Origin: Escherichia coli
GTDB lineage: Bacteria; Pseudomonadota; Gammaproteobacteria; Enterobacterales; Enterobacteriaceae
Assembly (NCBI RefSeq): GCF_030013205.1
Contig: NZ_CP122648.1
Strand: one strand, 5' to 3'
Length of the DNA stretch: 64,000 nucleotides
Below, piece by piece: positions 3,756-17,290 of this stretch. A program made the translations under genes and the position numbers. The notes beneath the pieces are model-generated. The model was not told where the DNA came from. It ran no database searches and worked only from the letters and a program-made list of their open reading frames with translations. Every line of letters starts with the position of its first letter. Positions within the stretch are counted from its first letter, which is position 1.

Positions 3756-4317
3756 CTATCAGGCACTGCGTGACAAGGCAGAGAAAGCAACGTGTGGTGA
3801 GTGGTCGATCGAATATGGAGATGGCAGCTTTGATGGTGATGATGCACTAATTCATCGCGAGGCTGCTGGATATATTCCCATTTGCAGAATTGAAGGAGCG
3901 CATCCTGAAAGCGGTTTCGATGAAGATTTCCAAATGGAACAGCAGGCCAATGCTGAATTCATCGCTGCAGCCAATCCGGCTACCGTCTTGGCGCTGCTTG
4001 GCGAGCTGGAAGCAGCAAAAAAGCGCATAGCAGAACTGGAAGCCGAACTCGTAAGCCAAACTTACAAGTTGAACGAGCTATCGGGCAACTCTCCGGTAAC
4101 TCCGGATGGTTGGATAAGCTGTAGTGAGCGAATGCCGGATAGCAAAACAGCCGTTCTTGTTGCCAGGGAGTTTGACAGGAAAGGTGACTGGCGAATGAAA
4201 TGGGCGACTTACATCCCTGGGCATCCTGACGCTAATGATGGGTGGATAATTCCTGGTGCGTCGTGGATACCATCACACTGGATGCAACTACCAGAACCGC
4301 CGCAGGAGGCGAAATGA
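3742..4317 (+). CDS. Ead/Ea22-like phage protein (DUF551-like C-terminus)
   Basis: 191-aa ORF with Trp-rich C-terminal region (WISCSERMPD...WIIPGASWIPSHWMQLPEPP) typical of Ea22/DUF551 proteins. Confidence 0.5.
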   Translation: MSEIDYQALRDKAEKATCGEWSIEYGDGSFDGDDALIHREAAGYIPICRIEGAHPESGFDEDFQMEQQANAEFIAAANPATVLALLGELEAAKKRIAELEAELVSQTYKLNELSGNSPVTPDGWISCSERMPDSKTAVLVAREFDRKGDWRMKWATYIPGHPDANDGWIIPGASWIPSHWMQLPEPPQEAK

Positions 4318-4408
4318 TGGACTATTCACAGTTAAGTGATTTTGAAATTAACAGAAGAGGCGAAATGATGGACTATTCACAGTTAAGTGATTTTGAAATT
4401 AACAGAAT
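4307..4408 (+). repeat. Perfect 51-bp tandem duplication spanning the ea22-like stop and the next gene's start
   Basis: AGGCGAAATGATGGACTATTCACAGTTAAGTGATTTTGAAATTAACAGAAG repeated head-to-tail; encodes GEMMDYSQLSDFEINRR twice. Confidence 0.9.
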
Positions 4409-10022: not shown

Positions 10023-11720
10023 ATGCCAATTTACACAGATGATCCGGGACAGGGAATTAACCAGCCAATTGGCAACGCGCCAGCAGGGCTTGGCGAATCG
10101 CTGCTTTCTTCCCTTAAGCAGGGATTTGAAGAGGGGCCGGTCATGTCCGGCTACCGTTTTGCGCAGGCCGACTCGCTGGCGAATGACCCAAACTCTACAG
10201 TTATCAGTAAGCAGGAAGCGGATGAGCTCCTGAAGCAGTACGGCGTAAAGAGCATAAACGTGCCAGATTCTGGCGTTACGCAGGCTTTTCTCGATCATGT
10301 TATTGCCGAACGCAAAGATTCTCTGGCACGCCAGCAGATCGCGATGTCGGCACCGAGCGGGTGGGTAGCCACGCCGCTTAATTTCGCAGCCAGCCTAGCT
10401 GGTTCAATGGCAGATCCTGGTAACGTGGCGCTGGCGCTGGTTCCGTTCGCTGGAGAAGCAAAGGCGGCTTCTGTGCTTGGCCGATTTGGCGAGCGATTTG
10501 TTGCTGGTGCACGCATGGGGGCAGCGCAGGCGTTGGTGACCGTGCCGCTTACCGGGCTGGCAGCGGCGGCGGAAGGTGACGACTTCACCTATAGCAACGC
10601 GTTGGAAAGTACTTTCTTTAACACGATGGCTGGCGGTCTAATGCATGCCGGCGGCGGCCTTATCGCCGATATCGTGCGACCGCGTCGCGTTCCCGATGCT
10701 GCAACGGGAGAGTCCCCGGCGTTTTCTGGCGATGCGCAGCCAACCCCGGTGATAACGCCTGACAACATTCCGGCGGGCGTGAATATCCCTGAGGTTGGCG
10801 CTAACGCAGATCTGGCGGCGGCCATTTCCAGTGAAGCGGAGAGCTACGCATACAGCCGGGCTTATGACGACGTGGTTCCTGACTATATGGCGCGCCAGCA
10901 GGAGTTACAGAGCGGGCAGATCGGTAACGTTGCCGACCTGCGTGCCGAGCTTGCGGCTAATCAACGTCATGCTGACTCGCTTGATGCGACGCTGCAGCAG
11001 CGCACCAAAAAGTATCAGGGGCAGCGGATGAAGTTTAAGGATGCGCGCTCTAGGGCACTGAAAGAGATTCAGGCCGAGAAAGACGCCATCGCTGCACGCA
11101 ATCAGGAGATCAACACATCGCTGGAGCAGAACGCGACAGCAGAGCAGGCGCGCTGGCGCCAGTCTCAGATTTCCCGCGGCGAGATCCCCGACGACCTGAA
11201 AGTCACCATTTCCGAGCGTGCGCAGCAGATCCTGGACGGCATGCAGATGTCTCCGGTCGCTGGCGCAGTTCGCACTGCCGCAAGCGCCATCAGGGATGCT
11301 GACTGGAGCGTGAACCAGCAGGCGTATCGCGCTGCGCTGGCACACATGATGGAAGGACGTATCCCAGATGTTGAGCCCTTCTATGAACTGCACAAACCGG
11401 CACTGCGTGAACGCGCCATCCATCGCATACAGAACCCGGCACGGCAGGTTGATGAAACGGCTCGCCCAGCAAGCGAAACAGCCGATCGGGTTTATCAAGA
11501 AACGCAAAAGGCAGATCATGAAATTACCGCTGCCGCTGCAGACCTTGATAACGAGCTCAACCTGAGTAACGCACTGCTTGACGATATCGCTGTCGATAAC
11601 CCTGATCTTGCGACCACGTTGCGCCAGAAACTCAATGATATTCGTGCCGACGCCAGCGACAATAGCATGAGCAACGCTTTCCGGGCATTTGCCGCCTGTA
11701 TGATTAACCGGGGGATGTGA
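10023..11720 (+). CDS. Internal virion/ejection protein
   Basis: 565-aa ORF directly following the SLT protein. Confidence 0.55.
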   Translation: MPIYTDDPGQGINQPIGNAPAGLGESLLSSLKQGFEEGPVMSGYRFAQADSLANDPNSTVISKQEADELLKQYGVKSINVPDSGVTQAFLDHVIAERKDSLARQQIAMSAPSGWVATPLNFAASLAGSMADPGNVALALVPFAGEAKAASVLGRFGERFVAGARMGAAQALVTVPLTGLAAAAEGDDFTYSNALESTFFNTMAGGLMHAGGGLIADIVRPRRVPDAATGESPAFSGDAQPTPVITPDNIPAGVNIPEVGANADLAAAISSEAESYAYSRAYDDVVPDYMARQQELQSGQIGNVADLRAELAANQRHADSLDATLQQRTKKYQGQRMKFKDARSRALKEIQAEKDAIAARNQEINTSLEQNATAEQARWRQSQISRGEIPDDLKVTISERAQQILDGMQMSPVAGAVRTAASAIRDADWSVNQQAYRAALAHMMEGRIPDVEPFYELHKPALRERAIHRIQNPARQVDETARPASETADRVYQETQKADHEITAAAADLDNELNLSNALLDDIAVDNPDLATTLRQKLNDIRADASDNSMSNAFRAFAACMINRGM

Positions 11721-14269
11721 TGGCAGCAAACGAATTTTTGACGCAGTGCGAGCGCAGTGTAAATGCTGCCGCTGGTCGCGAGCTTTCTTCCGATGAGATG
11801 GAGTCGCTGGTGCGTGACATGAACGACACCACTAGGCGAATTCTGGCGACCAATGAGGCGCTGTCTCTGGAAGAGGCCGCGATGCGCGCAGCGGAAGAAC
11901 TGAGCAATGCCGATATGCTGGCAAAACAGATTGAGGCTCGCAATAAGGCAATCAACACCCGTATTGCCGCACAACGACTTAGAGAGCTTCGTACTATCTG
12001 GAAAGACCGCCCGGATATCGGGCTTGAAGCAATGCTGGTTGGCCGCAACGATGCGCGTACCGGCGCCCGCCGGTCGGTATCTTCGGAGGTGGCGCAACTG
12101 CGCGGCAAGTATCATTCCGGTATCAACTACGATTTTGACCGTGCCGGGCTGGTGCAATTCATCGCCAGCGGCAGCAATGACAGGGAAATTGCCGATGCAA
12201 TGTGGCGCATAGGGCGCGGGCAGTCAACTGACGGTATGACAAAGCAATCCGTAAGCGCTGCACAAATCATCATGAAATGGCAGGAAACTGCGCGCATTGA
12301 TGAGAACCGCGCCGGGGCATGGATACGCAAAGAGCCGGGCTATATAGTGCGCCAGTCACACGACATCATGAAGATCCGCGCCGCAGGTTATGAAGCATGG
12401 CGAAATGCTATTCTCCCGCGCCTTGATGAGCGCACTTTTGACGGCGTGGCTGACCGCGAGCAGTTCATGCGTAACATTTATAACGGGCTGGCTTCCGGCG
12501 TGCATCTTACATCTGAAAAGCCAGATTGGATGAATGGCTTTAAGGGATCGGCGAACGCAGCTAAACGCGCCAGCCAAGAGCGAATTTTGCACTTCAAAGA
12601 TGGTATCTCGTGGCACGAGTACAACCAGCAATTCGGCACCGGCAGCCTGCGAGAGGCGCTGTTTGGTGGCTTAAACAGCGCTGCCCGCACAACGGGCATG
12701 ATGCGCGTACTGGGCACTAACCCACAGAACATGTTTAAGTACCTGACGGACACCATTGCTGAAGATATCAGCAAATCCGGAAGACCGGCAGCGTTGGCTG
12801 ACTACATGACGAAGGTGCGTCGCATTAACCGTACCGTAATGCCGCAGGTTGACGGCTCGCTAAATATTCCTGGCAGCGTAGGCTGGGCCAATGCGTCGGC
12901 GGCTGTACGCGGCTGGTTGCGTATGAGCCAGCTTGGTGGCGCGGTAATCTCATCGTTTAACGACGTGCCTATCGCCGCTACCGAGATGCGCTACCAAGGG
13001 CAGAATTTTATGCAGGCGTTGCTTGGTGCTATGAGAGGCCGCTTCACGCGTTACAACAGCGCGGAGCAGAAAGAGATCCTTTCCTCTATCGGAGTTTATT
13101 CCGACTCCATGACGCAGGAAATCATCCGGCGCATATCTGGTGATGACACGCTGAATGGAAAACTTGGTCGCGCGCAGCAGCTTTTCTTTAAGTACAACCT
13201 CATGAACTTCTGGACCGAGAGCGGTCGTAACAGCAACGCCATGATGATAACCAACTGGCTTGCAAAGAATGCTGACCAGTCTCATGCGCGGCTACCGGAA
13301 GACCTGCGACGCGTGCTGGATCTGCACGGTATTGGCGAACGTGAGTGGGAAATTTTTCGTAACATGGACATGGCCGATAGCGAAGGTCGTAAGTTCATGA
13401 CGACCAGCGGCATGCGCGGCGTGCCTGACGAAGTGATTGCCGGTTATGTAGAGAGTAAGGGGATCAAACCAACGCAGCGCGCTATCGCTGACGCACGCGA
13501 TCAATTGGAAGGGCAGTTGCGCGGCTACATCCTTGACCGCCTGAATATCGCCATGTCAGAGCCTGGCGATCGCACGCAGGCGTTTATGAAGATGGGCACG
13601 GTGCCAGGAACGGTGGCTGGGGAAGCAATACGATTCGCTGGTCAATACAAATCGTTCACTGCAAGCTTCATGCAGAACGTACTAGGACGCGAAGTATTCG
13701 GGCGTGGTTATATTCCTGCTGGGCTTGGTGAGTCGAAAACCGGATCGCTGACGAATGCGCTGCTACGTAACGGGAAGGGGGCTTTCCTTGGTGCTGCAAA
13801 CCTCTTTGTCTGGGCGACTATGTTTGGTTATATCTCCATGCAGTCAAAACTCATGCTGAAAGGGCAAACACCACGCCCGGCAGATGCCAAGACGTTTCTC
13901 GCAGCCGCATCTCAGGGGGGCGGTCTTGGCATCTTGGGTGACTTCATGTTTGGCGAGGTCAACCGCATGGGGGCCGGGCCGGTTACGTCGCTAATGGGGC
14001 CAGCAGCATCGAACGCTGACAGCATTATCACGCTGCTCCAGCAGACCACGAGAGGGGATGCAGATTTGGGTGACTGGTATCGCACGGCACTTGACAATAC
14101 GCCATTCCTCAACGTGTTCTGGCTTCGTACGGCGATGAATGGTTTAATATTGAACCGGATACAAGATGCCCTTGACCCAGGCTCTCTTGAGCGTTATCAG
14201 CGCCGTGTTGAGCGTGAGCAGGGTAACGACTTTTTGATCCCACCATCGCAGTTCATGCTAGGTAAATAA
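11720..14269 (+). CDS. Large internal virion/ejection protein
   Basis: About 849-aa ORF, start overlapping upstream stop (TGATG). Confidence 0.55.
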   Translation: MAANEFLTQCERSVNAAAGRELSSDEMESLVRDMNDTTRRILATNEALSLEEAAMRAAEELSNADMLAKQIEARNKAINTRIAAQRLRELRTIWKDRPDIGLEAMLVGRNDARTGARRSVSSEVAQLRGKYHSGINYDFDRAGLVQFIASGSNDREIADAMWRIGRGQSTDGMTKQSVSAAQIIMKWQETARIDENRAGAWIRKEPGYIVRQSHDIMKIRAAGYEAWRNAILPRLDERTFDGVADREQFMRNIYNGLASGVHLTSEKPDWMNGFKGSANAAKRASQERILHFKDGISWHEYNQQFGTGSLREALFGGLNSAARTTGMMRVLGTNPQNMFKYLTDTIAEDISKSGRPAALADYMTKVRRINRTVMPQVDGSLNIPGSVGWANASAAVRGWLRMSQLGGAVISSFNDVPIAATEMRYQGQNFMQALLGAMRGRFTRYNSAEQKEILSSIGVYSDSMTQEIIRRISGDDTLNGKLGRAQQLFFKYNLMNFWTESGRNSNAMMITNWLAKNADQSHARLPEDLRRVLDLHGIGEREWEIFRNMDMADSEGRKFMTTSGMRGVPDEVIAGYVESKGIKPTQRAIADARDQLEGQLRGYILDRLNIAMSEPGDRTQAFMKMGTVPGTVAGEAIRFAGQYKSFTASFMQNVLGREVFGRGYIPAGLGESKTGSLTNALLRNGKGAFLGAANLFVWATMFGYISMQSKLMLKGQTPRPADAKTFLAAASQGGGLGILGDFMFGEVNRMGAGPVTSLMGPAASNADSIITLLQQTTRGDADLGDWYRTALDNTPFLNVFWLRTAMNGLILNRIQDALDPGSLERYQRRVEREQGNDFLIPPSQFMLGK

Positions 14270-14271
14270 TA

Positions 14272-14832
14272 ATGAAGGCAATTATATTTTTTGTTTCAAT
14301 ATTGATGTCTGCATTTTCTTTTGCAGGGCAAAATGTTAAATGCGAACTTCAATACTTTGGAGATAGCGATAAATTTAAGGTAACTCAGTTTTCTTTTATG
14401 GGGATTCCATCTGATTCATACCTTTATACCTGTGCCGACTGTGGAGGCATCCAGATAAACGTGTTCCCATCTATTCAGACTGTTGCTTCCTACTCATTTG
14501 AAAACAACATTGATTTCGAAAGGAAAATCAATGCTGAATACAACAGAAAAGACATAGCTAAACTTGAGATGGAAAACGTTACTCAAGGCGGGAGAATAAA
14601 ATATTCAATCACCGATACTGGTTTGGCAGAGTTTTACCCAGAGGGCAAAAAGATAAGCTACCTCTACTTTTTAGCCAAGCAACAAAATGGTAAAGAACAA
14701 GTAGGTTATTCAGGATTTGTTACCTCTAACGGGGATAAGTCATGCTCAATTATTGCGACATATCCAGGAAAAGAAATTTCTTTTCTGGGAAGTAAATCTT
14801 TAAGCTACTTTATGAATCATATATCAATGTAG
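14272..14832 (+). CDS. Secreted moron protein with signal peptide, AT-rich codon usage
   Basis: 186-aa ORF starting MKAIIFFVSILMSAFSFA; marked drop in GC relative to flanking virion genes; followed by terminator. Confidence 0.5.
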   Translation: MKAIIFFVSILMSAFSFAGQNVKCELQYFGDSDKFKVTQFSFMGIPSDSYLYTCADCGGIQINVFPSIQTVASYSFENNIDFERKINAEYNRKDIAKLEMENVTQGGRIKYSITDTGLAEFYPEGKKISYLYFLAKQQNGKEQVGYSGFVTSNGDKSCSIIATYPGKEISFLGSKSLSYFMNHISM

Positions 14833-14845
14833 CGTGACATGTCAC

Positions 14846-14870
14846 AGGCCGCTTTCGCGGCCTTGTTTTT
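14846..14870 (+). terminator. Rho-independent terminator ending the virion/moron operon
   Basis: AGGCCGC-TTTC-GCGGCCT stem then TGTTTTT. Confidence 0.6.
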
Positions 14871-15030
14871 AACGAATGCCACCGCCACCCGGGCGGGAAT
14901 CCGCAGAACGCCCACCGCAGCGGGAGCCGTCAGCGGCAGTATCGCTGTCGTGCTGACAACGACCGGCAAAGGCCTGAGTTGAAGCTACCAGAGACAACAA
15001 AACGAACAGTGCAGCAAATGCTTTTTTCAT
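14869..15030 (-). CDS. Possible small secreted protein
   Basis: Internal Met of track ORF gives MKKAFAALFVLLSLVASTQAFAGR... (signal peptide-like); GC-rich, short. Confidence 0.3.
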   Translation of the reverse strand: MKKAFAALFVLLSLVASTQAFAGRCQHDSDTAADGSRCGGRSADSRPGGGGIR

Positions 15031-15102
15031 TGTGAAGTTTCCATCTATAAGCCACCTCAATGTGGCGTCAATGAGTGTAGCACTGGCTTTTGTTTCGTCC
15101 AC

Positions 15103-15136
15103 AAAAAAAGCCCGCAGCGCGGGCTATTCTTTTTTG
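15103..15136. terminator. Bidirectional hairpin terminator
   Basis: AAAAAAAGCCCGC-AGCG-CGGGCTATTCTTTTTT. Confidence 0.55.
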
Positions 15137-15990
15137 CTATTTCTTTGATATATATTTCTTCCATTTTTGGTAACACGAATAACGTGCCCCCTGGATTCTA
15201 CTTTGTTATTTGTTGCTTTATATACTTCAAAATCAAACCATGATATATAACTTATTTCGTCAATAGACACCATGATCTCAAGTCCTGGCACTTTCTTTCT
15301 GCTAATTCCTCTTATTGCTGCAGTCCGCTTGACCTGTATTTCTCCTGGATAAGCATTAGTGAATGTGACAGATAAGTTGTCTTTGTTCCTGTATCCTGAC
15401 ATTAAAGGAACAAAAGATATGTGCTGATGCGGACCCTGATTTTCCGTTGGTTCACCAGAACCATTTATTATTCCAACATACACTTTGTTTGATGATAAAG
15501 TAATCAGCATTGGTCGTTTAGGATCCGATTCAATAGCATCAAGCAATAGTAAGTCTAAAGAACCTTGCGAGTAAGTTTTTCGCAGTACTCTGGCCTTCAT
15601 TGCCTCTGTTTTTTGCTCGTAAATATCACGTTTATAAAAACAACCAAGAAGAAAATCTTTCACCCACACAACAGACACATAACACAAAGAGAAGCAAATG
15701 GATGTGGCTGAGAGAAGAAGCAGCCACATGTAAATTCTATCTGTTTCTGGTTTTGATGTTACATTAAAAGTTTCCACCATATCGTGAACTAGGTGAAAAT
15801 CAGGCCATTTATATTTTATAGCGGCTGCAATTATTACTGATGCAACAAGGCAATATGTACCTAGTGCCGCTACTTTCATATAAAGAAGCTGGCCTTCGTG
15901 TCGGTATAAACGGAAATAATGATACTGGTTAGCGGTTATCATAATATAACCGCTAACCAGGATTGGGATAATTAGAAGAGCTAGCAACAC
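15124..15990 (-). CDS. Membrane protein with about 3 N-terminal TM helices and about 175-aa cytoplasmic domain; candidate superinfection-exclusion or abortive-infection moron
   Basis: 288-aa ORF, AT-rich, hydrophobic N-terminus; lies between ejection genes and antirepressor where P22-like phages place sieA/immI. Confidence 0.5.
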   Translation of the reverse strand: MLLALLIIPILVSGYIMITANQYHYFRLYRHEGQLLYMKVAALGTYCLVASVIIAAAIKYKWPDFHLVHDMVETFNVTSKPETDRIYMWLLLLSATSICFSLCYVSVVWVKDFLLGCFYKRDIYEQKTEAMKARVLRKTYSQGSLDLLLLDAIESDPKRPMLITLSSNKVYVGIINGSGEPTENQGPHQHISFVPLMSGYRNKDNLSVTFTNAYPGEIQVKRTAAIRGISRKKVPGLEIMVSIDEISYISWFDFEVYKATNNKVESRGHVIRVTKNGRNIYQRNSKKE

Positions 15991-16199
15991 TACTTCCTTA
16001 CAGTGGCAAGATCCTGTTTAACAATTGCAGCAGCGAGACGACGCATCTCCTTAACCTCAGGAAGCTCAGAAATTTGCTGTGATGAGATATATACTCCACC
16101 ACGCTTGTTAACCTGCGCTGACGCCGGAACTTCTGCATTTTTTGCCTGAGGGCTGGGTGCATTATCCCTCGTTTTTGTACGAGCGAACCAAAATCCCAT
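15990..16199 (-). CDS. Small protein co-transcribed with the membrane protein (start/stop overlap)
   Basis: 69-aa ORF with RBS; operator-like palindrome immediately upstream. Confidence 0.4.
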   Translation of the reverse strand: MGFWFARTKTRDNAPSPQAKNAEVPASAQVNKRGGVYISSQQISELPEVKEMRRLAAAIVKQDLATVRK

Positions 16200-16225
16200 A
16201 TATCCTCCTCATGTAAACACATGGT

Positions 16226-16240
16226 TTACCTTTAAGGTAA
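16226..16240 (-). promoter_or_regulatory. TTACCTTTAAGGTAA palindrome immediately upstream of the 69-aa/membrane-protein operon
   Basis: Read directly; same dyad family as cI-cro operators. Confidence 0.5.
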
Positions 16241-16306
16241 TATTACGCGAATCTACATCACATCGCCAATGATTATTTTAAAGGCACATCCCTGTGCCGC
16301 CGCTCG

Positions 16307-16999
16307 TCAGAAGAACCCTGCCTTGTCGTTGATGTACTCCGCGTGCGTCTGGATATCACGCAGGCATTTGCTCACACCGACGATGTAGCAGAACATGGTG
16401 GTCAACTCCGCCGCCGCGCCCGATACGTCGTGCCCGTCTTCCTGTAACTGGTTCAGCAGATTCATCAGCAGTGAGTTCTCCGTCAGGCCGAGAACACCAG
16501 ACGGAGAATGAATCAGGCTGCGGTAGCCGGGCTTCAGCGGGGCACTGTAGGTTTTGTTCTCTATCTTCATTGCCTGCATCACTGCTGATGCTGTGGCGTT
16601 GGCTACCTGGTCGGCAACCATCTTTATGCGTTCTTCCTGCGGGAGCGAGTTTTTAATGTAACTTCCGGTGCGGCGGATCTGAGGAAGAACCTCACCTGTA
16701 ACCCATTCAAGAAATCTGAATGCTCTCGTTCCCTCAGTCATTGCCTCTTTGCAACGCAGAATAAGGATGTAGAGACCTGATTCTGAAACGATGGATAGTT
16801 CTTGTATTCCACCAGGGGTCTGTATTGAATACAGCCCCTTTTTGTTCCAGCCTTTTTTATCAAGTTTTCTCGCTTGTGTAACATCAATATTCAAAGCATT
16901 GCACACATCTTTGGTGACAAACCAAGGTTCTCCGTCAATCATGAACATACGGATCTGGCAGGATGACTCAAAGGAAAAGATGGAAGGTTTGGTATTCAT
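16307..16999 (-). CDS. Antirepressor-like protein, N-terminal Bro-N domain plus C-terminal Ant-type domain
   Basis: MNTKPSIFSFESSCQIRMFMIDGEPWFVTKDVCNAL...SESGLYILI matches Bro-N pattern; start taken at internal ATG (track ORF begins at 17044). Confidence 0.7.
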   Translation of the reverse strand: MNTKPSIFSFESSCQIRMFMIDGEPWFVTKDVCNALNIDVTQARKLDKKGWNKKGLYSIQTPGGIQELSIVSESGLYILILRCKEAMTEGTRAFRFLEWVTGEVLPQIRRTGSYIKNSLPQEERIKMVADQVANATASAVMQAMKIENKTYSAPLKPGYRSLIHSPSGVLGLTENSLLMNLLNQLQEDGHDVSGAAAELTTMFCYIVGVSKCLRDIQTHAEYINDKAGFF

Positions 17000-17290
17000 G
17001 GCGATCACCTTTGTAGTTAGGTTAATCACCACCGCTGAGACCAATCAGATGGTGGTGAACTGTGCAGAGTTGGTCTTACCGGCTACAAAGGAACCCGGCG
17101 CACCTTTCGGTGCCCCCACACAGCCCACCATAGAATAGGTGCGCTTTACACATAAAAAAACCGCTTATGCGGCATATGTGCCTCTGTAGTAATCCGGGAG
17201 ACCAATCCCGGCACTGGATTTTGCCAGTGCCCGATTACTATGGCACAAGAGGAGTGCGATGTAAATTTACCGCAAAGGTAATGATAAACG
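17000..17290 (-). other. Long structured 5' leader of the antirepressor gene, containing an intrinsic terminator (plus coords about 17154-17172) and several hairpins
   Basis: Minus-strand reading: GCACTGG..CCAGTGC, CGGGA..CCCGG, CCGCATAAGCGG+TTTTTTT, GCACC-GAAA-GGTGC, TCACCACC..GGTGGTGA; 10-nt GATTGGTCTC repeated in two loops. Confidence 0.45.

Follow-up and report, generated by a model that had tools for sequence, protein, structure and literature searches.

Positions 14,272 to 16,240 of a 64,000-nucleotide stretch of Escherichia coli DNA (contig NZ_CP122648.1 of assembly GCF_030013205.1; the whole stretch is called the window here) form a cargo region of a prophage, and the main finding concerns a two-gene operon in this region that encodes a 69-aa protein and a 288-aa inner-membrane protein. 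Our leading interpretation, which we hold tentatively and to which we give somewhat less than an even chance, is that this pair is a membrane-acting phage-conflict module of the abortive-infection (Abi) or toxin–antidote kind. Small mobile two-gene cassettes with a membrane effector in defence hotspots are a known kind of system, and it is the domain composition and the partner that appear to be new, as judged from database searches. The operon and its predicted control elements, with positions counted in the window, are as follows.

15124-15990, minus strand: gene of the 288-aa inner-membrane protein, with three predicted N-terminal transmembrane (TM) helices (N-terminus out, C-terminus in) and a predicted cytoplasmic Sm/LSm/Hfq-like beta-barrel at about residues 145-260
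15990-16199, minus strand: gene of the small, predicted cytoplasmic 69-aa partner, with the ribosome-binding site GAGGAGG, no hydrophobic segment and the core RGGVYISSQQISELPEVKEMRRLAAAIV
15109-15125: bidirectional terminator-like hairpin AGCCCGCAGCGCGGGCT, flanked on either side by T-runs, at the end of the operon
15925-15960, minus strand: hairpin with a perfect 15-bp stem and a 6-nt loop, covering codons 11-22 of the 288-aa open reading frame (ORF; L-V-S-G-Y-I-M-I-T-A-N-Q)
16226-16240: operator TTACCTTTAAGGTAA, with the 5-bp half-sites TTACC/GGTAA in a perfect 7-bp inverted repeat
16240-16269, minus strand: putative sigma-70 promoter of the operon, with the -10 element TAATAT (16240-16245), an 18-nt spacer and the -35 element TTGGCG (16264-16269)
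16283-16298, minus strand: terminator-like hairpin, GGCACAGGGATGTGCC plus TTTAAAATAA, which ends the Bro-N antirepressor gene and parts it from the cargo operon

The two genes share a single base. The 69-aa ORF ends in AAG TAG, the last G of which also opens the GTG start codon of the 288-aa ORF, and AAGGAAG lies just upstream of this GTG. An overlapping two-gene operon had been proposed in an earlier reading of the bare letters (hereafter the sequence-only reading), and the overlap was indeed seen. The PGAP annotation starts the membrane protein at M38 and thereby shortens it to 251 aa. As no stretch of the family is better conserved than residues 1-37, with L5, L6, P9, I10, L11, V12, S13, G14, and Y15 invariant in the alignment, the conservation argues that the long form is the right one; many database entries of the family are likewise 286-288 aa long. 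Hydropathy analysis found hydrophobic segments at residues 1-19, 40-58, and 90-108, and the eight lysine or arginine residues that follow the third segment predict a cytoplasmic C-terminal domain and an N-terminus outside. Hydropathy and charge count agree with the three TM helices and the cytoplasmic domain that had been described before. A 74-aa ORF in an alternative frame over the 69-aa gene (15998-16222, minus strand) is probably spurious, as its frame is not conserved in relatives. Both ORFs of the operon are intact and 98-100% identical across unrelated strains.

A phmmer search with the 288-aa protein against 1.84 billion cluster representatives returned 714 clusters (defined at 50% identity) with E <= 0.001, 174 of them with E <= 1e-10. 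Nearly all of these proteins are 240-340 aa long and alike in layout, and none of the 714 clusters has a name, a Pfam domain, or a solved relative. The members share the N-terminal motif LLIxPILVSG(F/Y), the cytoplasmic loop LHRY(D/E)GQxLYLK, and the C-terminal motif RKVYVGxV...GEPNExxGxxQEI...PxxSGYRDKDTLxVxFTTxY...SxFDFxxY, in which the conserved loops are KVYVG...GEP(T/N)E and P..SGYR(D/N)KD. The small proteins, 55-90 aa in length, form a family of their own with the consensus (R/K)VVGRGT(V/L)xIDxxEV..S..F(K)....A..IV; the 69-aa protein of the window and its Providencia counterpart are 47% identical (E = 3e-12).

The two families travel together. A homologous small ORF lies immediately upstream of the membrane gene in 17 of 17 phage loci and in about 69 of the 71 genome loci in which the N-terminus of the membrane protein could be located (one exception, L112, has none, and a further one, L090, is doubtful), and the same holds for two metagenomic contigs of distant members. 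The intergenic gap from the small to the membrane gene ranges from -13 to +54 nt over about 86 loci, and no third gene is common to more than 11 of 80 loci. As the small ORF adjoins the membrane gene so regularly and no other gene is shared by the 80 loci, the pair is an autonomous, horizontally mobile unit. It is found in Gamma-, Beta-, and Alphaproteobacteria, with single matches in contigs labelled Nostoc and Flavobacterium, and is conserved down to about 25% identity across the proteobacterial classes with its motifs invariant. Most members of the family reside in bacterial chromosomes without phage genes.

An AlphaFold2 model of the 288-aa protein, calculated from a 23-sequence alignment, reached a mean predicted local distance difference test score (pLDDT) of 73.2. 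It contains long N-terminal helices, a helix at residues 145-154, and five strands, with a low-confidence insert at residues 217-236. The modelled domain thus has the layout of the Sm fold, an N-terminal alpha-helix followed by five strongly bent beta-strands, and on this basis the C-terminal domain is probably Sm-like. Sm/LSm/Hfq proteins, WYL barrels, and the middle domain of MscS differ from it at the level of sequence: the 288-aa family has no Sm1/Sm2 or Hfq motifs and no match to the Pfam families LSM, Hfq, WYL, or MS_channel. To our knowledge, a free-standing Sm-like domain that is tethered to a membrane is not a described architecture. The query and 60 family members had no match in Pfam at all, and none among PDB sequences at E <= 1. 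Homology to MscS was also rejected at the level of sequence, with an hhalign probability of 0.1%. For the small partner, an AbrB-like nature was considered and dismissed, as the GxVxIP motif matched with E = 2 and is missing in the wider family, which has VVGRGTVxID at this place.

Searches of Pfam, NCBIfam, PADLOC, and PDB sequences with all products of the region and with the family profiles found nothing, and neither the four products (69, 288, 186, and 53 aa) nor 10 relatives reached E <= 0.1 with any family of PADLOC-DB v2 (2023). The products are therefore as unrecognisable as the sequence-only reading had said, in the sense that none matches a known family. A literature search on the family accessions and on Sm-like transmembrane anti-phage proteins of prophages also found nothing.

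The operon occupies a defined slot, with the bidirectional terminator at one end and the antirepressor terminator at the other. Of 5426 complete E. coli genomes, about 505 match the region and 29 have the operon itself. In TL-2011b (L005, 4296-4995), the slot holds a 59-aa gene and a YafO-family toxin gene; in Hafnia (L133, 5614-6159), a YafO-like toxin gene with a faint Pfam match, for which no small upstream gene was called; in Salmonella (L129-L132, 5617-6421), a 110-aa gene and a DUF2335 gene; and in phiV10, it is empty. As sister prophages thus hold different cargo in the slot, it is a cassette-exchange hotspot. The exchange can be seen at the level of single bases in E. coli 4/4 (L135, NZ_CP023826.1, 2230-2717), aligned with 15760-16205 of the window: the 69-aa gene is kept at 98% identity, the homology breaks off precisely at the stop codon of this gene, and a different small ORF and a DUF2335 gene come next. 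This locus is an orphan small partner with a precise cassette-exchange junction.

Beyond this group of prophages, the pair resides in places where defence genes accumulate. Using tblastn, we found homologues in 10 phage records, all prophage-derived or integrase-bearing by annotation, and those that were examined lie at accessory sites: between int and attP in Cronobacter phiES15, between gpA and the portal gene in the P2-like Salmonella SEN4/5 and Klebsiella ST15-OXA48phi14.1, and at the genome end in two Pseudomonas phages. The gpA-gpQ interval, the home of old and tin, has been defined as a defence hotspot of P2 (Rousset et al., PMC9122126). In this hotspot of Klebsiella ST15-OXA48phi14.1, a 69-aa gene and then a bSEFIR gene (PADLOC E = 7e-103) come after the pair.

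For the chromosomal members, we took 20 diverse loci and compared the closest two ORFs of 120 aa or more at each with PADLOC at a cut-off of E < 1e-5. An immediate neighbour matched at 7 of the 20 loci, a small sample without a formal control. The matches were a CBASS CD-NTase (L076), Avs2 (L086, E = 0), SoFic/PDC-S04 (L069), an MzaA-like protein (L087), PDC-M63B (L057), a PLD/DrmC-like protein (L067), and a partial dCTPase (L101). The remaining neighbours are ordinary or mobile genes, among them those of an IS1182 transposase, a GGDEF protein, a TetR regulator, and an MBL-fold hydrolase. Within the limits of this small, uncontrolled sample, the neighbourhood is the usual guilt-by-association signature of defence. 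In Asticcacaulis aquaticus (L076, 2547-7831), two HORMA genes, a CD-NTase, and NucC of a type III CBASS are followed by a second CD-NTase without an effector of its own, and the pair begins about 320 nt past the latter, counted to the longest ATG-started small ORF (more if the start lies further in); in this one genome, the pair might serve as the effector of the second cyclase. The sequence-only reading had listed the products of the region as candidates for exclusion or anti-phage functions. For the two-gene operon, this guess was strengthened by the defence hotspots and islands, while the relationship to SieA that its comparison with P22 brought to mind did not hold, as detailed below.

In the window, expression of the operon is probably governed by the phage. 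The operator directly upstream of the operon, which had been noticed before, is genuine and far above chance: TTACC-N5-GGTAA has 15 matches with at most one mismatch versus 1.17 expected, and TTACCTTTAAGGTAA has six with at most two mismatches versus 0.04 expected. Perfect copies of the half-site pair begin at seven positions (223, 2572, 2634, 16226, 17267, 17360, and 18479), and near copies at 240, 271, and 608. The type is thus also found in the cI/cro-like region: the cluster of three sites at 223-285 lies between the gene of a helix-turn-helix (HTH) regulator of 194 aa that is truncated at the edge of the window (phrog_8 and repressor PHROGs) and a cro-like gene of 76 aa in divergent orientation (phrog_35), which by analogy is the layout of a lambdoid immunity operator region. 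The putative promoter of the operon scored 8 of 12, below the threshold of the scan, and was read by eye; its GCGTA(A/C)TATTACC is conserved in TL-2011b. The last T of its -10 element is the first base of the operator, and this arrangement is found at three promoters of the window in all, TATCAT-TACC at the antirepressor unit (where the scan gave a match at 17310-17281), TAATAT-TACC at the cargo operon, and TTTAAT-TACC before the DUF1064 gene. As the site would cover the transcription start, the operon is probably repressed through it, and the module would be off in a quiet lysogen.

This control belongs to the slot and not to the cargo. In TL-2011b, Salmonella, Hafnia, and E. coli 4/4, where the cargo is different, the slot promoter retains the half-sites and varies in the centre and flanks; the Providencia-type and P2-like loci lack the half-sites. 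The earlier notion of an operator-controlled operon is therefore right as far as the operator is concerned, but the site is a property of the phage slot and is not part of the mobile pair.

A further potential level of control lies within the coding sequence of the 288-aa protein. The hairpin at 15925-15960 has a predicted free energy of -24.7 kcal/mol (z = -7.07), and none of 200 shuffled sequences was as stable. Among 14 distinct sequences of the enterobacterial phage clade, which reach down to about 40% protein identity, the hairpin cells are paired to 84.8%. The stem measures 12-15 bp in these relatives, with compensatory changes, in this clade only; pairs 27:40 (UA in 7, CG in 5) and 30:37 (CG in 5, UG in 4, UA in 3) covary. 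The covariation score was above all but 3 of 500 shuffles and collapsed in slid controls, which gives moderate covariation evidence for the hairpin within the enterobacterial phage clade. As a family-wide RNA element it was rejected, since over 84 sequences a mean of 7.1 of the 15 pairs could form, the same as in slid controls. Conservation does not extend to the T-tract downstream, so that a function as terminator is doubtful. At all 14 loci of the clade, GTG or TTG serves as the start codon of the membrane gene, a few bases at most from the stop codon upstream; in the wider family, ATG prevails. Together, the starts and the hairpin suggest that, in the phage versions, the membrane protein is translated at a low level and in dependence on the small gene.

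From the anatomy, pairing, distribution, cassette exchange, operator family, predicted fold, and neighbourhood described above, we infer an anti-phage role, an effector, a ligand, and repression by the prophage repressor in the following form. The membrane protein would be the effector and would perturb the inner membrane or whatever crosses it. The Sm-like domain would be the sensing and/or ring-forming part, binding nucleic acid, a nucleotide, or a partner. The small protein, made first and in excess, would restrain or gate the effector. In the quiet lysogen, the operon would not be expressed; loss or absence of repression, as upon induction, through antirepressor action, or in a fresh infection, would switch it on. 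A more specific version would see in the 288-aa protein a membrane-tethered Sm-like ring, an undescribed class of inner-membrane effector, that is gated by phage RNA or ends of single-stranded DNA that enter or arise at the membrane, or by loss of the partner, and then opens or disrupts the membrane. This would make the pair a new anti-phage system with a novel way of sensing, spread over more than 700 clusters; taken as a whole, this version is unlikely. Among described systems, Abi pairs of the lambda RexAB type resemble the proposed module in that a prophage encodes a soluble and a polytopic inner-membrane protein, and depolarisation would be a plausible output. They differ in that there is no homology, that the soluble protein is tiny here, and that the membrane protein has a cytoplasmic domain of its own. 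In addition, rexAB is co-transcribed with cI in the lysogen, whereas the operon of the window has an operator over its start site.

Several observations weigh against a phage-conflict module. The query and 10 relatives showed no homology to a validated defence, toxin, or exclusion protein in PADLOC, and of the chromosomal neighbours sampled, about two in three are ordinary genes, again with no formal enrichment control. The Sm-like assignment derives from one AlphaFold2 model of moderate confidence (residues 217-236 below 50) with a Foldseek E of about 0.02, and for the profile of the small partner, Pfam and PDB-sequence searches recognised neither a fold nor a DNA-binding domain. If the prophage repressor binds the operator, the module would be off in lysogens, which is atypical for prophage defence, as rexAB, old, and sieA are expressed in lysogens; a role in the lytic cycle would fit this equally well.

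Such a lytic role could be that of an early set of genes used after derepression, in replication control, lysis timing, RNA handling, or an exclusion that acts only in the lytic cycle. It would explain why the operator sits over -10/+1 as it does at the ant/C4 and DUF1064 promoters and why operators of the same type are spread over early and accessory units, and a modelled Sm-like fold would suggest RNA binding. Operators of P1 C1 are likewise spread over early and accessory units. The module is, however, dispensable and exchangeable, with 29 of the about 505 region-matching E. coli genomes carrying it and an empty slot in phiV10. The main point against an early phage function is the wide, phage-independent distribution, with most members in chromosomes without phage genes; the position in other phages at lysogenic-conversion sites (int-attP and the P2 old/tin locus) also speaks against such a function, which we consider unlikely. 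Exclusion of the SieA type is a different proposal: the protein in the inner membrane blocks the delivery of incoming phage DNA, for example at the ejection-protein conduit, without killing the cell. The position is that of P22 sieA, between the ejection genes and ant/tailspike, and SieA is also a three-TM inner-membrane protein with a conserved cytoplasmic C-terminal motif, FxRYPxEAxxFNK in types A-C (PMC10883804). Both are prophage cargo; the P22 order at the corresponding place is 16-sieA-orf59a-mnt-arc-ant-9, and the succession of ejection genes, cargo, antirepressor, and tailspike is common to both, so that the positional analogy to sieA and immI, drawn before, is sound. The Providencia homologue has the corresponding position in another podovirus-like prophage. 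There is, however, no sequence homology that would make the protein a member of the SieA family: hhalign of the 60-sequence family profile against P22 SieA gave a probability of 0.5% over 11 columns. P22 SieA has about 164 aa (160-200 aa and three to four TM helices in its family) versus 288 aa with a whole predicted Sm-like domain here, and the obligatory small partner is not a SieA feature. As members of the family are also found in P2-like myoviruses, in a lambdoid phage, and at many chromosomal loci outside prophages, a podovirus ejection protein is an unlikely target. The main point against a constitutive exclusion in the lysogen is the operator, which predicts no expression there, and we hold out little prospect for this explanation.

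The gene pair could also be a selfish addiction cassette without any anti-phage role, in which a membrane toxin that is stable and a small antidote that is labile would stabilise the carrier element. The layout is that of type II toxin–antitoxin (TA) systems, two adjacent, co-oriented genes that abut or overlap, the small one upstream of the larger one with a stop/start overlap. In TL-2011b, the YafO-type TA-like cassette takes the place of the pair at the same locus and under the shared promoter/operator. The orphan small gene kept in E. coli 4/4, the rarity of the membrane gene without the small gene, and the weak start codons also fit such a cassette. On the other hand, the putative toxin is a membrane protein and not an RNase, the small-protein profile contains no type II antitoxin domain (ribbon-helix-helix, AbrB, HTH, or Phd) in Pfam and PDB-sequence searches, and no DNA-binding or protease-sensitive antitoxin features are detectable. 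The neighbourhoods are rich in defence genes rather than in plasmid or partition genes, although from a small sample without formal control. Pure addiction is thus an unlikely account, and it overlaps with the phage-conflict module that we favour, as many TA systems in such hotspots prove to be defence systems. An effector of nucleotide second messengers, in the logic of CBASS Cap15 or Panoptes OptE, would use the barrel to bind a cyclic nucleotide made elsewhere in the cell, and its binding or release would set off disruption of the membrane. TM plus beta-barrel effectors of this logic are established (PMC12657218). Cap15/OptE (S-2TMbeta) share with the predicted architecture of the 288-aa protein the N-terminal TM helices and a small cytoplasmic beta-barrel, which could be a ligand sensor, and both occur in defence islands. 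One relative in the AlphaFold database (31% identity) is named 'SMODS-associating 2TM beta-strand rich effector', and the Asticcacaulis pair (L076) follows a CD-NTase that has no other effector. The differences are that there are three TM helices instead of two, that the model shows an Sm-like five-strand fold with an N-terminal helix instead of the Cap15 barrel, and that the partner is a 55-90-aa protein and no nucleotide synthase. Membership in S-2TMbeta/Cap15 was rejected, as neither the query nor 60 members matched PF18153 and neither the query nor 10 relatives matched PADLOC, and so was an operonic association with CD-NTase/mCpol, with a cyclase neighbour in 1 of 80 genome loci (L076) and 0 of 33 viral loci. 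We regard this explanation as improbable. Finally, the ORFs could be decaying or non-functional passengers, given that terminase, portal, protease, and most of the capsid gene are missing from the prophage. The intactness and near-identity of both ORFs in unrelated strains and the conservation of the pair with invariant motifs across proteobacterial classes make this highly improbable.

The remaining part of the region and its surroundings contain the following features.

11717-14269: gene of an 850-aa ejection/internal virion protein, GC content 0.549
14272-14832, plus strand: gene of a 186-aa predicted secreted protein with a signal peptide (from sequence and hydropathy) and the conserved cysteines C24, C54-x-x-C57, and C158
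14846-14863, plus strand: terminator-like hairpin AGGCCGCTTTCGCGGCCT followed by TGTTTTT, at the end of the late operon/186-aa gene
14869-15030, minus strand: gene of a predicted 53-aa small secreted peptide, called by PGAP (phrog_14503/3117)
16307-17044, minus strand: Bro-N antirepressor gene, GC content 0.492

The host element of 14272-16240 is a defective phiV10/epsilon15-like (Uetakevirus-type) prophage of a porcine enterotoxigenic E. coli. When 14200-16400 was compared with the phage collection, only phiV10, TL-2011b, phiv142-3, HEMP4, and their relatives matched, and these matches were restricted to the 53-aa gene and the antirepressor end; the assignment to a P22-like phage in the sequence-only reading thus had to be revised. 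Over its first 24 kb, the window matches E. coli ETEC4079 (NZ_CP122643.1) in one piece at 100%. Compared with the ETEC4071 copy, the prophage of the window lacks 6.8 kb (both the small and large terminase subunits, a tRNA-Arg, portal, protease, and most of the capsid gene) and, at a second place, 1.29 kb, and because of these deletions it is defective. It also has a 51-bp tandem duplication relative to the ETEC4071 copy; the differences lie at about 4306-4407, 4990, and 5835. The genes of an SLT-domain protein and of 565-aa and 850-aa proteins (internal/ejection proteins) precede the cargo, and the Bro-N antirepressor gene, a 242-aa gene, a 91-aa gene, the tailspike gene (18598-20967), and then lysis genes follow it. 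The 242-aa protein (17395-18123, plus strand) has an N-terminal hydrophobic segment, repeated Cys-rich motifs of Zn-ribbon-like appearance at its C-terminus, and weak PHROG matches to endonuclease VII, Lar-like, and HNH families. The product of the 91-aa gene (18145-18420, minus strand) is a paralogue of the Bro-N antirepressor's C-terminal domain that stands by itself (phrog_450).

Upstream of the Bro-N gene, on the minus strand, Rfam detected a C4 antisense RNA (17048-17135, 78.6 bits versus a gathering threshold of 45), isrK (17154-17230, 74.7 bits versus 50), and an a1/b1 C4-target element (17191-17243, 39.9 bits, below the threshold of 46.7). By these matches, the C4/isrK region is a predicted RNA circuit of the P1/P7 immI type in an epsilon15/phiV10-like prophage. 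The likeness to P1/P7 immI (c4 antisense RNA-icd-ant, C1 operator Op51) concerns the regulatory context only, namely a C4-family RNA and a target-like element before an antirepressor and scattered repressor-type operators. It ends with the phage type, an epsilon15-group podovirus here, with the symmetric TTACC-N5-GGTAA versus the asymmetric 17-bp C1 site, and with the IsrK-like RNA that is present in addition.

All ORFs that the sequence-only reading had described were found. It had taken them as one moron cluster with a sharp drop in GC content from 14270 to 16000. The GC content is indeed low in the 186-aa (0.355) and 288-aa (0.370) genes, but the drop is not continuous, as the 53-aa gene has 0.574 and the 69-aa gene 0.476. 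As the 186-aa gene travels with the ejection genes, the 53-aa gene belongs to the backbone, and the operon is one of several cassettes, the region consists of three separately inherited pieces instead of one cluster.

The 186-aa gene begins 2 nt past the stop codon of the 850-aa ejection gene and is therefore probably read with the late operon; phiV10 has an annotated terminator at the place equivalent to the hairpin at 14846-14863. The gene has the equal position in the Salmonella and Hafnia prophages, where the downstream cassette is different, and its homologues are confined to Enterobacterales (66-92% identity), with no match among sequenced phage genomes. The protein corresponds to phrog_11983, of unknown function, and has no Pfam or NCBIfam family; its AlphaFold2 model was unusable (pLDDT 44). 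The residues C-A-D-C-G-G-I at positions 54-60 (14431-14451 of the window) resemble CADCEGI, a motif of the NlpE N-terminal domain. A relationship to NlpE was rejected and stays a lead only (NCBIfam E = 0.033, hhalign probability 4.8%). The 186-aa and 53-aa products each have one N-terminal hydrophobic segment ending in ...FA-G, in accordance with the signal peptides proposed earlier, as far as sequence and hydropathy can tell. The mature part of the 53-aa product would have about 31 aa with two cysteines and be rich in Gly, Ser, and Asp; its database name is 'transmembrane anchored protein'. Its distribution marks the gene as a backbone moron of phiV10-like prophages: it is found in phiV10-like phages and in about 500 E. 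coli genomes, with nucleotide identities of 95-99%. A GTG-started extension to 77 aa is without conservation support, and a 47-aa ORF in an alternative frame (14839-14982, plus strand) overlaps the gene. Both products are separate cargo, predicted to be directed to the envelope, and may act as exclusion or host-surface factors.

If the pair has an anti-phage or toxin–antidote function, the defence repertoire would gain a compact system of two genes and about 1.1 kb. Its combination of three TM helices, a predicted Sm-like barrel, and a partner of about 60 aa is not in Pfam, NCBIfam, or PADLOC, and it is spread over hundreds of proteobacterial lineages and several families of temperate phages. 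The slot of the epsilon15/phiV10-like (Uetakevirus-like) prophages is a diversity hotspot with a conserved terminator and a conserved promoter/operator, like the hotspots of P2 and P4, and could be mined in the same way. If the cargo is wired into the repressor regulon, it would be deployed upon derepression, which would be an unusual logic for prophage cargo.

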